From: Candidatus Latescibacterota bacterium | GTDB lineage: Bacteria; Latescibacterota; UBA2968; UBA8231 | Reading direction: 5' to 3' | DNA length: 64,000 nt | Assembly: GCA_965248265.1 (NCBI GenBank) | Contig: CBDFJF010000002.1 | Location: 3,040,001-3,104,000 of the forward strand | Shown here: piece after piece, positions 1,064 to 5,834 of the stretch | Layout of the letters: each line of letters begins with the position of its first letter | Numbering within the stretch: the first letter of the stretch is position 1 | Translations under genes and position numbers: made by a program | The notes under the pieces: generated by a model | Seen by the model: the letters and a program-made list of their open reading frames with translations, nothing else | What the model was told of the DNA's origin: nothing | The model's database searches: none

Positions 1064-3886
1064 CTATTTGAGCAAACTGTGGAGGCGAGCCTCGGAATGC
1101 GCGTTCCAGCCGCTGAGGATCTCGGCGATGCGAAAATCCTCATCGAGGATGAAGGTGATGGGCACGGAAAGCCGATCGCCCGAATAGAGCAATTCCAGGC
1201 TGCTCTCGTCGGCGGTGAAGACTGGATACGAGATTCCGAGTCTGGTGAGAAAGGAGGCGACTTTGCGGCGGGCGTCTTCCACTTCGACGCTGATGCCGAT
1301 CAGATCCACACCAGAGGACAGCAGTTCGGGGTAGAGTTTCTCCAGCTGCGGCATCTCTTCACGACACGGAGCACACCAGGTGGCCCACAGGTTGACGACG
1401 GCAGGGCGGCCCGACGAGCGCAGGGCGGTCGCGGCCCCGTGCCGGTCGGTCAGCGCCAGCGCGGGAAACGGCTCTCCCGGGCGCGGCCGTACGGACTGGC
1501 GGACGAGCTCGTCGGTCGCCGCGGGGTCGGACAGCGAGAAGCGGCGCTCGCGCACGTACTCCAGCTCGTCTTCACCCTCCCGCACCAATACCGATGAGCC
1601 GGCCGCTACCGGGCCAAAACGCTGCGTCGATCCAGCGGGCCACCGGATCTGGAGCCATTGGGCGCTCTCGTCCTGTCCCAGGCCGAACAGCAGGCGCGGG
1701 TCACTCTGCGAGACGAAGCCGCTGCCTCCTGCCTTGATTCGCGTGAGCACTCCCTGCGAGGTCTTGACCCGCACCCGGGCGCCGTAGGCGTCACGCCCGC
1801 TCTCGCTTCCTCTCAGGGCAACGCGGAGGAAGCCGTTGCGAGTGCCGACTTCATTGCGGAACAGGTGATGGGTCTGCCCCTGCAGGCTGGTCAGGAAGAC
1901 GTCGTAGTCGCCGTCGTTGTCGAAGTCGGCGTAGGCGGCGCCACGCGCGTCGCTGACGGCGTCGAGCCCCGACAGTCCGGAAATGTCGACGAAGCGCTCG
2001 CCGCGATCGCTGAGGTAGAGCTTGTCGCGTTCGAAACCGCTGAACGAGAAACCGTCCTCCAGGATCTTGGCCATGTGCTCATTCTGATACTGGGAGTTCC
2101 CGGCGTCTTCCAGTTCCACTGACGACGCCAGCACGTGGCGCCAGAACAGGCTTCACGTGTCCTTCAGCGACTTGCCAGAGACGAATCCGTTGGGGCTGTG
2201 GATGTCCTGCCAGCCGTCGTTGTCGAAGTCGAGGAATCCACCCCCCCAGGCCCATCCGCCGGCGAACGGTCCGATCGCGGCGCTCACGTCCTCGAACCGC
2301 CCGTCTCCGAGATTGTGGAAGACTGTGTTGCCGGCGGCGAGCTTGTTGAGGACGCGGGTCTCGTCCAGGTGCGAGGCGCTGTCGGGGAACAGACGCTTGA
2401 TAATGCGATTGCCTGCCGTCGAGGACATGTTGGTGACGTGCAGGTCGAGATGCCCGTCGTTGTCGTAGTCGCCGACGGAGACACCCATGCCGTTGCCCGG
2501 GTCCAGCATGCCCATGGCGGCGGCGACATCCTCGAACCGGTCCCCGCGATTGAGGTACACCGCGTTCTCGCCAAAGTCGTTGGCAAGGTAAAAATCCTGT
2601 CGACCGTTGTCGTCGAGATCGACGAAGTGGGCCGCATACGACCAGCGGCTGTCGGCCACGCCCCAGGCGGCGCCCTGCTCGGCAAAGGTGCCGTCGCCGC
2701 GATTGACGAACAGCAGATTCGGCGTGCCGTTGGTGGCCCGTGACCAGGAATTGGGCATAACCAGGCCATAGCGATTGTAGGAGGCCACGTGGATGTCGGG
2801 ATAGCCGTCGCCGTTGACGTCGGCCGCGCTGGCGCTGAATCCCTGTGCGGGCAAATCGACGCCGGACGCCGCCGACACATCGACGAAGGTGAGCGTGCCA
2901 TCGGGCACCAACCGACTCTCGAACAGCATCTGATCGCCCAGCGTCGCCACGAACAGATCACTGTCGCCGTCGTTGTCGTAATCGAGAAAGAGCGCTCCCG
3001 AGCCGTTGAGGGTGATCTTGAGACCGGCCGCGGCGGCGCGATTCTCGAAGCGACCGTCGCCCAGGTTCAAGAAGAGGAAGTTCTGCCCCTGACTCGTCGT
3101 GAACACATCGAGCAGTCCGTCGCCGTCGACGTCGGCGACCGCGACCCCGTGAGCGATGAAGCCGGGATTGTCCGGCGAGCCGAAACGCGGCAGGGTGTGG
3201 TATACCTCGGCGGATACGGTGACTTCGTTGAACAGGTCCGTCAACGCGACGCGCGCGTGGAAGGAGGAGAGGGTGAACTCCCCGATGGACCAGCGCTCGC
3301 CGGCGCGGACAGCCTCCACGTGCGCCTTCGCTTCGGTCCAGGCGCGAGCGCCGCTGCGGTCGCGTCCGATGATGGCTATGTAGATGGAGGCATCGGCGCG
3401 CGTCTGTAACTCGCGCATGTCGAAGTCAGCCTGTTTGACCTTGAAACGCACGTCCTCGATACTGGCGAAGCCGCCGAGGTAGCTGTGCCAGCTGCTCAGG
3501 AAGGCGGCTGCGTCCACGGGCTCCAGCGGCCAGGGCGAGTCGACCTCGGCGATCCACTTGATCTGGGGCGTGCGGTCACCTCCCGGCGCAGGCCATGGGG
3601 TCGCGGTGAGTCGGGGACTGAAGTGGCCGGCCATCGAATCGGCATCGCGATCGCGCACGGCGAGGGAGAGTTCGTGCAACTGGTTGGCGAGGTCCTCGCT
3701 CAAATCCTCGATTTGTTCGACCTGAGCCCGGTTCACTGGACCGGCGTCCGACGGACCGGCCTGCGCACTACTCGCAGGAGGGTCGGCGACACCCACAGCA
3801 AGTGACAGGGCAGCGGCGGCGATAGCCGCACGGCGGGCTTCACGCCATAGTGTGATGGGTGCGTGCAAGGGGTTCTCTCGGCTCAC
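1064..3886 (-). CDS. Secreted CRTAC1/UnbV-like FG-GAP repeat protein with ASPIC/UnbV and C-terminal TlpA thioredoxin domains; putative selenoprotein (UGA at 2153-2155)
   Basis: Signal-peptide-like N-terminus, many DxDxDGxxD FG-GAP repeats, ASPIC/UnbV motif (GSGFVSQSDPRLLFGLG...IRWP) and NLWATWCAPCREEMP. ORFs 2153..3886 and 1064..2134 are in frame: SGKSLKDT-TGA-SLFWRHVLASS. Confidence 0.85.
2113..2147 (-). promoter_or_regulatory. Candidate bacterial SECIS element
   Basis: 3' of the UGA: stem GGCGCCA/UGGCGUC closing the loop CGUGC (G at loop position 2, followed by U). The loop starts at the 18th nt after UGA. A lower GUUC/GAAC pairing is also possible. Confidence 0.65.
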
Positions 3887-4331: not shown

Positions 4332-4364
4332 AACCCTCCCGGAGCACTACGATCCGGGAGGGTT
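4332..4364. terminator. Strong hairpin, probable intrinsic terminator
   Basis: AACCCTCCCGGA-N9-TCCGGGAGGGTT, a perfect 12-bp inverted repeat. Confidence 0.5.
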
Positions 4365-4841
4365 TCTGCTTCGGACGATTTCAGCTCTCAGAGTCAGGAT
4401 CGTTCCACCATGTGCTCTGGTGCGGGACGCGGGTGCCGATGGAATTGAAGAAAAGCTGTGTCGCCGTATGGGGCGGGCCGGCTCCATGGCGAAGCGGCGG
4501 CCGACGGAGTCGTCGTCCCAGGTCCAGCCGTCTCGTTCGCGGACGTTGGCCACCAGTTTCGCCGTGTCGTCGACGTACACCTTGTAGCTGACGTAAAGAT
4601 TGGAATCCGTGTACGCGTGGCGGGCTTCGACAGGGTAGGAGAGCGGATGAAGCCGCATGAAGGGCAGGTTCTTGTGGAACCGAGATACCAGCGTGGCTTC
4701 TTGCCAGGCCACGTCGTTCAACTCTCCGTCGACCACGGGTAGCACGTACGGAGGCAGAGTGAACGCCCGCAGTGATGGTAAGGCAAGGGGGAGGTGTCCT
4801 CTCGGTGACACTCCCCCTTGCTGAGCACGATTCGGCACCAT
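4347..4841 (-). pseudogene. CBM9-like sugar-binding domain fragment
   Basis: PVVDGELNDVAWQEA...YTDSNLYVSYKV...RERDGWTWDDDSV. The frame degrades after DDDSV. Confidence 0.55.
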
Positions 4842-4903
4842 CAGGCGCTGTGACAGCGGAGTAGGTGAGCTCTATCACCGAACGGCGCGTACCTGGCCGT
4901 ATG

Positions 4904-5404
4904 TCATGTGTTCGGCTTCTTCAGCAGAATCTGAAAGATCATGACGTGAGTCACGAAAAGGGCCGGCACGATCAGAAGTGGGATGAAAACCACTCCACCC
5001 AGTTGGCCTGCATCTACGTGCTGCAGACCTTGAGATATGGCATAAACTGCATCGATGGTCCCCTCCAGATTGAAGATCCAGACTAGAGGAATCGCAATCG
5101 ACCATCTGAACTTCAGTGCTACCACCGCAATCAGAGCGAGGATGGACGCCAGAAGGTCGCCGTAGGCAGCCGGCACGGCAAAGTCGTGGGTAACATCGGG
5201 CGATACGACACCAGGAATGAGAAAGGCAAGTCCGATGTAACGAAACGCATGGGGGAGCACCAGTGGGATCAGCGCATCATGGCGGGAAAGTTTCGTTAAG
5301 GCCGGCATGACATACCATCGAGCGATGAGTCCGTAGGTTGCTATCCCGAGCACAATGCTCACCGCGATCTTCAGCATATCCTGCCCCAGGACTTCTGATG
5401 GCAT
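4904..5404 (-). CDS. Hypothetical multi-pass membrane protein
   Basis: GGGAGG RBS before ATG 5404. Hydrophobic segments with HAFRYIGLAFL, PAAYGDL and WIFNLEG motifs. Confidence 0.75.
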   Translation of the reverse strand: MPSEVLGQDMLKIAVSIVLGIATYGLIARWYVMPALTKLSRHDALIPLVLPHAFRYIGLAFLIPGVVSPDVTHDFAVPAAYGDLLASILALIAVVALKFRWSIAIPLVWIFNLEGTIDAVYAISQGLQHVDAGQLGGVVFIPLLIVPALFVTHVMIFQILLKKPNT

Positions 5405-5834
5405 GAGTGTCCTCCCTTCGGTTAAGGCGCTGTGCGCTGGGTGAACGTGATGAGAAACTTCCCGATCAGACTCTTTCTCTTCTTCAGCATCAGCACATGC
5501 CATAGACGAGTCGTGGCCATGGTATTCGTGGACTACCGCCTGCCCCGCCCGGCGGTCGCACAATATGCTGCCTAACGGCAAAAAACGCACTCTCCACAAG
5601 ATGGAGGGGCGCGATCTCCATCTGTTGCGTGATTTGCCCAGGATCATGAAACGATGGATGGAGAGGGAACAGTTGCTGACTAGCCAGGCGAGGCGGATTG
5701 CCGTGGTCCGCTAGGCGAGCATCAGATTCAGTGGACGATTCCCACCCAGTGACAATCGGCAGTGCCTGCTCTCCCATGACTTAAGAACGGAAGCTGCACA
5801 TCACTTTCCTGATCAGTCGTAACATCGGAAGACA

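Follow-up and report, generated by a model that had tools for sequence, protein, structure and literature searches.

A probable exported selenoprotein of a Latescibacterota bacterium, with its selenocysteine codon in a CRTAC1-type propeller fused to a TlpA-like thioredoxin domain

Do two neighbouring open reading frames (ORFs) of a Candidatus Latescibacterota bacterium encode two proteins, or are they the halves of a single gene in which an in-frame UGA is read as selenocysteine (Sec)? The question is raised by a 64,000-nucleotide stretch of contig CBDFJF010000002.1 (assembly GCA_965248265.1, positions 3,040,001 to 3,104,000 of the forward strand), hereafter the window, whose minus strand carries one ORF of 577 amino acids (2153..3886) and another of 356 amino acids (1064..2134). 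In the ORF listing both occupy the same frame, separated by a gap of 18 bases, and the public collections hold the two halves as distinct proteins, P0057 with 571 amino acids and P0129 (from NCBI and ENA) with 356. An initial annotation, made from the letters of the window, had proposed that they form one frame cut by a single TGA in the context KDT-stop-SLFWRHV, and that neither half bears any other lesion. This was borne out: translating positions 1064-3886 with TGA as Sec (U) yielded 940 residues, among which U578 (context KDT-U-SLFWRHV) is the sole odd codon, and no further stop or frameshift was found in the translation of the whole frame. We consider it very likely that this region is a single gene for an exported 940-residue selenoprotein, with UGA578 as its Sec codon and the domains listed in the table below; and we have high confidence in the predicted decoding of UGA578 as Sec.

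The TGA recurs at this site in five phyla, and the codon with its downstream sequence was read in 59 distinct TGA-bearing sequences. First, the same genome harbours a second copy of the gene (G000:C1:2418755-2421448; L026 1408-4200, plus strand), which encodes 930 amino acids, is 77% identical and has its single TGA in the same motif (GKSLKDT-U-SLFWRHV). Second, a search for relatives (E <= 1e-60) matched 15 of 61 genomes in 17 rows, 15 of which have exactly one TGA, the remaining two being one broken gene of genome G012 in which the TGA is retained. Third, among 168 genomes of the organism's own phylum (E <= 1e-40), 27 genomes matched in 29 rows; 27 rows have one TGA, one (G012) has one TAA, and one without TGA (G116) is 35% identical and lacks the motif. 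Fourth, an even sample of Acidobacteriota gave matches in 86 of 401 genomes: the rows with E <= 1e-98 have one TGA in 44 of 45 cases and a serine in the other (G559), and the 64 weaker rows divide into 25 with a TGA and 39 with none. The close TGA form occurs in 43 of these 401 genomes (about a tenth), a tally that includes the unpublished genomes G221 and G324, on which no conclusion depends. Fifth, 51 of 301 sampled Planctomycetota genomes matched, with one TGA in 79 of 90 rows (TGAs being counted per match, whatever their position). The same codon also stands in named metagenome-assembled genomes (MAGs) of Acidobacteriota (L081-L084), Planctomycetota (L085, L103), Verrucomicrobiota (L086, L087) and Myxococcales (L088). 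The initial annotation had looked to homologs for a conserved TGA alternating with Cys; the first part of this expectation holds in the close orthologs, and the outcome of the second is odd, the site being Cys in only three relatives, with the others having mostly S, D, N, E, A, R or M there.

Three particular cases deserve mention. TAA or TAG codons in homologs, which the initial annotation had held to speak against Sec, were seen in the own phylum only in the broken G012 gene (L046/L051/L070, G012:C9:37357-40061); this ortholog has a frame change and TAA/TAG stops, yet both its TGA and its hairpin are kept; the gene is a pseudogene or else the product of an assembly error (the MAG comprises 250 contigs). 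In the planctomycete G771 (C4), seven matches with one TGA each, again counted per match, make up a multi-copy expansion of the putative selenoprotein. A short subfamily of the own phylum (genus g14; L074, L075, L078, L080), of about 900 amino acids, keeps the TGA in the motif ED-S/T-U-SLFWRTVV; it ends 212 residues after Sec, lacks the CxxC domain described below, and has its hairpin one base out of register.

Could the TGA be a sequencing error or the mark of a recent pseudogene? Nothing besides the stop codon itself favours this reading, to which we give practically no credence. The identical TGA is present in dozens of genomes from several phyla, and the comparison of the two in-genome paralogs (number of synonymous substitutions per site, dS, about 1) gave ratios of nonsynonymous to synonymous substitution (dN/dS) of 0.155 upstream of the TGA and 0.127 downstream of it. 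Since dN/dS lies at 0.13-0.16 on either side of the TGA, both halves are translated and constrained, under purifying selection. Metagenome contigs from X1-X3 (three runs of a single sample, which may be the source, so that they are not independent) and from X5 reproduce the stretch. Among the differences listed between the window and the metagenome contigs, none falls at 2153-2155, which speaks against an error as far as the three non-independent runs go; 38 more differences are unlisted, and no clean contig spans the codon with 31 letters on each side. No RNA set is listed among the sequencing runs with the stretch. Separately, metagenome depth is about hundredfold higher over the DxDxDG motifs of the FG-GAP repeats at 1886-1947, 2196-2257 and 2413-2505; because of this rise we regard the sample as rich in related repeat genes, and the depth there as uninformative on the selenoprotein gene.

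The reading in which the TGA terminates translation and a new start is made from the GTG lying 18 nt downstream, so as to yield two proteins, agrees with the gene callers and the public collections, which list two, and with the position of this GTG, six codons past the TGA. It is nevertheless highly improbable, for the following reasons. The intervening codons SLFWRH show conservation at the protein level, and full-length non-Sec relatives have them without a break. The called start of the second ORF (GTG 2132-2134) is Val585 of the continuous protein and sits in the apical loop of the hairpin described below, with no Shine-Dalgarno-like sequence seen by eye before it. Finally, the break would fall within the propeller, ahead of the last FG-GAP repeat. 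The initial annotation was right on these last points: it had described the downstream ORF as lacking an obvious ribosome-binding site and as supplying the last repeat of the propeller.

A hairpin resembling a Sec insertion sequence (SECIS) had also been recognised after the UGA. Its stem is formed by bases 13-19 and 25-31, counted from the U of the UGA. Bacterial SECIS elements are described as having a loop of 3-9 nt, a stem of 4-16 bp, a UGA-loop distance of 16-37 nt and a minimum free energy (MFE) of at most -7.5 kcal/mol, with a G among the loop's first two nucleotides, often followed by G or U (PMC13188914). The hairpin lies within all these published limits (5-nt loop, 7 bp, 17 nt between UGA and loop, MFE of about -11 to -12 kcal/mol). 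In 29 distinct sequences aligned in one register its loop follows the pattern NGUNN, with an invariant G and U at loop positions 2-3; 96.6% of the cells are paired, and compensatory changes occur in four of the seven pairs (10 cells). For instance, in the L039 ortholog an Arg-codon change on one arm has its counterpart in an Ala-to-Thr change on the opposite arm. None of 500 shuffled controls reached the real alignment on any of five measures, and sliding the 3' arm reduced pairing to 30-72%. In other subfamilies the stem is displaced by one or seven bases from this register, and its arm sequences differ.

Part of the stem is favoured by the peptide W-R-H/Q-V-V/L-A itself, for which reason non-Sec relatives sharing that peptide served as controls. 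The 59 Sec sequences form a mean of 6.53 of the seven pairs (41 of them form all seven) with an MFE of -12.0 kcal/mol, whereas the 14 non-Sec controls form a mean of 3.7 pairs (one forms six, nine form four) with an MFE of about -6 kcal/mol; the p-values of this comparison are overstated, since kin are not independent. No Rfam family matched positions 1950-2250 at E <= 10, a null result that is expected of a bacterial SECIS specific to its family.

The genome possesses the machinery that such a hairpin would serve, in keeping with the check for selA, selB, selC and selD suggested by the initial annotation: selA (560.9 bits), selB (332.8 bits), a tRNA-Sec whose anticodon is TCA, and a selD that has a single in-frame TGA. 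The selD gene (G000:C2:1010876-1011799, locus L014; 352 bits, with the TGA inside the match) probably encodes a selenophosphate synthetase that itself contains Sec, to judge from its sequence. In the own phylum selB was found in 25 of 26 TGA-bearing genomes, against a background of 128 of 168; the exception (G033) is 87% complete and in 780 contigs. Among the Acidobacteriota with the close TGA form, selA was found in 39 of 43 genomes and selB over its cut-off in the other four (background for selA, 300 of 401), and selA was present in all four TGA-bearing genomes from other phyla. This co-occurrence is consistent with Sec decoding and not decisive, because sel genes are common in these phyla.

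A stable hairpin right after a stop codon can generally promote read-through, and it may be asked whether the UGA is read without selenium, a near-cognate tRNA putting in Trp, Cys or Arg with the aid of the hairpin. We hold this to be very unlikely. The hairpin agrees with the SelB-type consensus, down to the invariant G-U of the loop; selA or selB accompanies the TGA forms in 25/26, 43/43 and 4/4 genomes, frequent as these genes are in any case; and one would expect a sense codon, as the simpler solution, to take the place of the TGA often. Trp or Arg in homologs had been put forward by the initial annotation as evidence against Sec. Arg does occur in some non-Sec relatives, and the TGA forms are unaffected: as those relatives have no intact hairpin and mostly no thioredoxin domain, their Arg does not refute Sec in the TGA forms.

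What kind of protein, then, would carry this Sec? The order of its domains is a signal-peptide-like leader, an NTF2-like domain, a CRTAC1-type FG-GAP propeller, an UnbV/ASPIC domain and a TlpA/ResA-like thioredoxin domain with a WCAPC motif; the succession of the last three, as first annotated, is upheld by Pfam and fold matches. Residues 1-47 of the AlphaFold2 (AF2) model have a predicted local distance difference test (pLDDT) value below 50 and are disordered save for a helix (12-28) that matches the leader, and hydrophobic leaders are likewise found at the N-termini of orthologs. The NTF2/SnoaL-like appearance of the N-terminal domain, noted by eye in the initial annotation, holds at the level of the fold only: no Pfam family matched this domain, while Foldseek searches of the PDB with its confident model gave E values from 2.5e-5 and TM scores, by target, of 0.5-0.8 against 3b8l (a putative ring hydroxylase), 3ef8 (scytalone dehydratase-like), 3hx8 (ketosteroid isomerase-like), LinA, SgcJ and further NTF2-like proteins. 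The propeller matched FG-GAP_3 (PF13517; 2.3e-41, 140.6 bits, six stretches) and FG-GAP (PF01839; 9.2e-17, 61 bits), both above their cut-offs, and the top fold match in the PDB was murine CRTAC1 (9etn_A; E 5.2e-28, TM by target 0.74). For the C-terminal domain the fold matches are ResA, StoA and TlpA. In an NCBIfam r20 scan it scored 70.2 bits for ResA (subfamily; cut-off 170) and 64.1 bits for TlpA (equivalog; cut-off 230), StoA and DsbE being sub-threshold too, so that by its profile scores this domain is TlpA-like, and neither TlpA nor ResA proper.

The full chain (AF2, 42-row alignment) folds as one confident model (pLDDT 89.2; predicted template-modelling score, pTM, 0.88). In this model Sec578 opens a helix (578-589) which, together with a second helix (598-610), forms an insert between two propeller strands (local pLDDT 86-87). 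Both the helical insert and the D-T-x-S-x-F-W-R motif are missing in more distant CRTAC1-like proteins. Besides Sec, the only cysteines of the protein are C838 and C841. The same restriction of cysteine to the CxxC was observed in eight further rows of the 19 Sec forms examined, and two more rows have an extra Cys within their first 27 residues. The coordinates of all features are collected in the following table.

Features of the candidate selenoprotein gene and of its upstream neighbour (positions in the window; strand in brackets)
Feature	Residues	Position (strand)	Remarks
Whole gene	1-940	1064..3886 (-)	940 codons + stop; GTG start 3884-3886; single in-frame TGA
Signal-peptide-like segment	1 to ~34	3785..3886 (-)	Basic REARR, hydrophobic AAIAAAALSLAVGV, then VA/D; read by eye from the sequence
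NTF2-like alpha+beta domain	53-221	3224..3730 (-)	AF2 of the domain alone: pLDDT 91.8, pTM 0.85
FG-GAP beta-propeller, CRTAC1 type	~245-690	1817..3154 (-)	Sec codon falls inside the propeller
UGA codon, read as Sec	578	2153..2155 (-)	Same codon in orthologs
Family motif D-T-U-S-L-F-W-R-H-V-L-A-S-S		2120..2161 (-)	T577, W582 and R583 in at least 90% of rows
SECIS-type hairpin		2124..2142 (-)	7-bp stem, 2136-2142 with 2124-2130; 5-nt loop CGUGC, 2131-2135; starts 10 nt past the UGA
UnbV/ASPIC domain	700-765	1592..1789 (-)	Pfam PF07593, 5.9e-17, 61.8 bits (cut-off 23.4)
TlpA/ResA-like thioredoxin-fold domain	803-922	1121..1480 (-)	Pfam Redoxin 4.5e-16, AhpC-TSA 3.9e-15, both above cut-off
CAPC redox motif	Cys838, Cys841	1364..1375 (-)	Within WCAPC
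Heavy-metal P-type ATPase, 817 aa		5835-8288 (-)	YHS + two HMBD domains; 2 kb upstream of the selenoprotein gene

From this architecture we propose the following pathway. SelB, with Sec-tRNA(Sec), would recognise the hairpin in frame 10 nt after the UGA, and Sec would be inserted at residue 578 in place of termination. The N-terminus of a helix is the usual setting for a redox-active Cys or Sec, and the selenolate at the start of helix 578-589 could be the redox-active centre. The fused CxxC pair may resolve the oxidised Sec via a selenenylsulfide, and would itself be kept reduced from the cytoplasm, as in other TlpA/ResA-type proteins. The three chalcogens would then form a relay acting on an extracytoplasmic substrate, perhaps one held by the NTF2-like domain. 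We regard this Sec/CxxC redox relay as a reasonable working model with a serious rival, and rate its chances as somewhat below even. The initial annotation had envisaged a self-contained extracytoplasmic redox enzyme with the N-terminal domain as a possible substrate pocket; of this, the exported 940-residue protein with its Sec codon stands (the signal-peptide-like leader being read by eye), and recycling of the Sec by WCAPC and the substrate pocket remain proposals.

In favour of the relay, besides the place of Sec578 at the helix start and the lack of cysteines outside the CxxC, a single CxxC lies 256-296 residues past the Sec in 57 of 62 evaluable distinct Sec genes, the exceptions being the broken G012 gene and the four members of the short subfamily. 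P0010, a relative with Cys at the site, retains the thioredoxin domain. In raw counts, the thioredoxin domain is fused in 58 of 59 Sec rows, or 58 of 63 if the four short forms are counted (the tree input left them out), against 11 of 35 non-Sec rows. Separately, positions whose conservation reaches at least 90% in 14 Sec forms and does not exceed 35% in 17 non-Sec ones include K572 and K575, just before the Sec, as well as N68, W133, K149 and K151 of the NTF2-like domain; a link between the N-terminal domain and the Sec site is hinted at by these differences, a pattern that is confounded by kinship.

Several observations weigh against the relay and the catalytic role that it gives to residue 578. 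First, selenoproteins normally have Cys homologs, and the residue aligned with Sec in full-length non-Sec relatives from the protein search is S in 11, D in 11, R in 10, M in 10, A in 4 and C in 3 of them, with others (some of the M and D rows come from remoter subfamilies), while the 49 motif-bearing non-Sec rows of the tree set have S 12, D 8, N 6, E 6, A 6, C 3, Q 2, L 2 and V, R, T and G once each. P0007, P0010 and P0011 are the only Cys forms among them. These non-Sec residues make a classic Cys/Sec catalytic site a less secure assumption; S, D, N and T are typical N-cap residues of helices, and the position may be structural in many members. Second, a thioredoxin domain is present in 11 non-Sec relatives, of which 10 have no Cys at the site: in P0002, P0004, P0006, P0088, P0087 and P0070/72/80/96/97 the residue there is V, L, S, G, A or D. 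Since such fusions exist without Sec, the CxxC domain must have a Sec-independent role. Third, the short Sec form (L074, L075, L078, L080) does without any CxxC. Fourth, a kinship-aware test of the association between Sec and the thioredoxin domain was not significant (four independent pairs, median p 0.5). Fifth, no partner or operon is conserved across the window and 20 other loci (21 compared).

The rival that these observations raise is that Sec is inserted and is not a redox centre served by the thioredoxin domain. It would instead bind a metal or metalloid as a soft ligand, or serve as a tuned helix cap, at D-T-x-S-x-F-W-R, with the TlpA-like domain acting on other periplasmic clients. 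Such a role would suit the variety of residues at the site, with Cys in only three relatives; the thioredoxin-fused members that have neither Sec nor Cys there; and the constancy of D576, T577, W582 and R583 whatever stands at 578. It would also suit the metal-related genes scattered around the family, namely the P-type ATPase of the window, COX15/CtaA as the adjoining gene in four own-phylum loci, an AcrB-type RND pump in three loci, and an FTR1-cytochrome c fusion in three Acidobacteriota loci. However, these neighbours are local recurrences only and are not conserved over the 21 loci; the CxxC domain is found in 57/62 Sec forms against 11/35 non-Sec rows; the mature protein is otherwise free of Cys; and a Sec at the N-terminus of a helix is typical of a redox residue. 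On balance we judge this ligand or cap role unlikely, serious as it is.

Returning to the redox relay, its widest form holds that Sec, the fused CxxC and an NTF2-like pocket together make a self-contained extracytoplasmic selenoenzyme; that D-T-x-S-x-F-W-R is the active site of the CRTAC1/ASPIC-UnbV superfamily; and that Sec is ancestral in the clade and was often lost to non-redox residues, along with the thioredoxin domain. We advance it only tentatively. If true, the history of the family would be unusual, with Sec forms far outnumbering Cys forms. A quick, unrooted maximum-likelihood tree (113 rows) requires 10 changes of the Sec label, at least six of them forced by well-supported branches, and Sec occurs in several deep clades. 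This pattern, together with the hairpin at a shared position, suggests, as far as an unrooted tree allows, an old Sec with repeated losses. The non-Sec codons at the site (TCC, AAC, AAT, GAG, GCA, GCC, CAG) showed no excess of one-step neighbours of TGA, and no sign of very recent loss. The simplest reading of the site is a helix cap position recruited by one lineage for selenium chemistry.

Has this family been recorded as a selenoprotein already, a question that the initial annotation could not settle? Table 1 of Zhang et al. 2026 (PMC13188914) comprises 119 prokaryotic selenoprotein families or subfamilies, and has no FG-GAP, CRTAC1 or UnbV entry. The terms FG-GAP, CRTAC, ASPIC, propeller and VCBS are absent from the main texts of that paper, of deep-Sep (PMC12013277), of BSepDB (PMC13326102) and of a 2022 review (PMC9312934), whose supplements may list the family, and no FG-GAP or UnbV protein appears in main-text passages of Kim et al. 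2016 (PMC4807772), whose supplement may list candidates. A literature search linking FG-GAP, CRTAC1 or UnbV/ASPIC with selenoprotein or selenocysteine, or Acidobacteria with SECIS and in-frame UGA, returned nothing relevant. The NCBIfam r20 scan of the protein found no selenoprotein family, and only sub-threshold matches of the thioredoxin type. The family is missing from the 2026 catalogue and from NCBIfam, and it is a bacterial selenoprotein family with a standard in-frame SECIS.

Compared with known systems, the gene shares with the E. coli genes of the fdhF type the in-frame UGA, the stem-loop that follows it immediately within the coding region, the G-U in a small loop, a spacing within 16-37 nt, and selA, selB, selD and tRNA-Sec; it differs in belonging to another protein family and in encoding an exported protein. 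In FdhA the Sec binds a Mo or W cofactor (PMC13188914); Pfam and NCBIfam scans detected no cofactor-binding domain in our protein. With selenoproteins that have a TlpA/ResA-like domain, it has in common this extracytoplasmic domain and a likely thiol/selenol redox chemistry. However, the catalogued thioredoxin-type families have their Sec inside the thioredoxin motif (Table 1, PMC13188914), whereas here the WCAPC is ordinary and the Sec stands 260 residues upstream, on the propeller. The envelope selenoproteins (the TonB-dependent receptor of the FCYXU type, the GSU2204/MtrB-PioB family and the ExtKL cytochrome) are similar in being predicted to be exported or in the envelope and in having Sec outside a thioredoxin fold (Table 1, PMC13188914); judged by their descriptions, they are set apart by unrelated folds. 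There remain the members of the CRTAC1/ASPIC/UnbV family (9etn; the bacterial 'CRTAC1 family protein' and 'enediyne biosynthesis protein E4'), which share the FG-GAP propeller and the UnbV_ASPIC domain by Pfam and by fold, and which lend their names to the database relatives. These members are without Sec, and the clade described here adds the helical insert with DT-U-S-x-F-W-R, the NTF2-like N-terminal domain and the thioredoxin domain.

Regarding the surroundings of the gene, the ORFs at 4347-5647 (-), between the P-type ATPase and the selenoprotein gene, have no Pfam match. The in-genome paralog (G000:C1:2418755-2421448) has COX15/CtaA and an AcrB-type RND pump as its flanking genes. In-frame stops are present within weak matches at further FG-GAP/ASPIC paralogs of the genome, namely C1:34849-35349 (one TGA), C1:1417318-1418553 (one TGA and one TAG) and C1:1311352-1311891 (three TGA and one TAA); these may represent additional Sec sites, copies in decay, or matches extending over gene borders.

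Because gene callers split these genes at the TGA, a large exported family has been mis-annotated in the genomes examined. We know of no established biochemical function for the CRTAC1/UnbV family, and our finding points to a specific site within it. Its interest lies in the abundance of the Sec form, in its fold, in its exported location and in the rarity of Cys forms; and it would add to the known selenoproteins an abundant one of soil and marine bacteria, with its Sec outside the thioredoxin fold.

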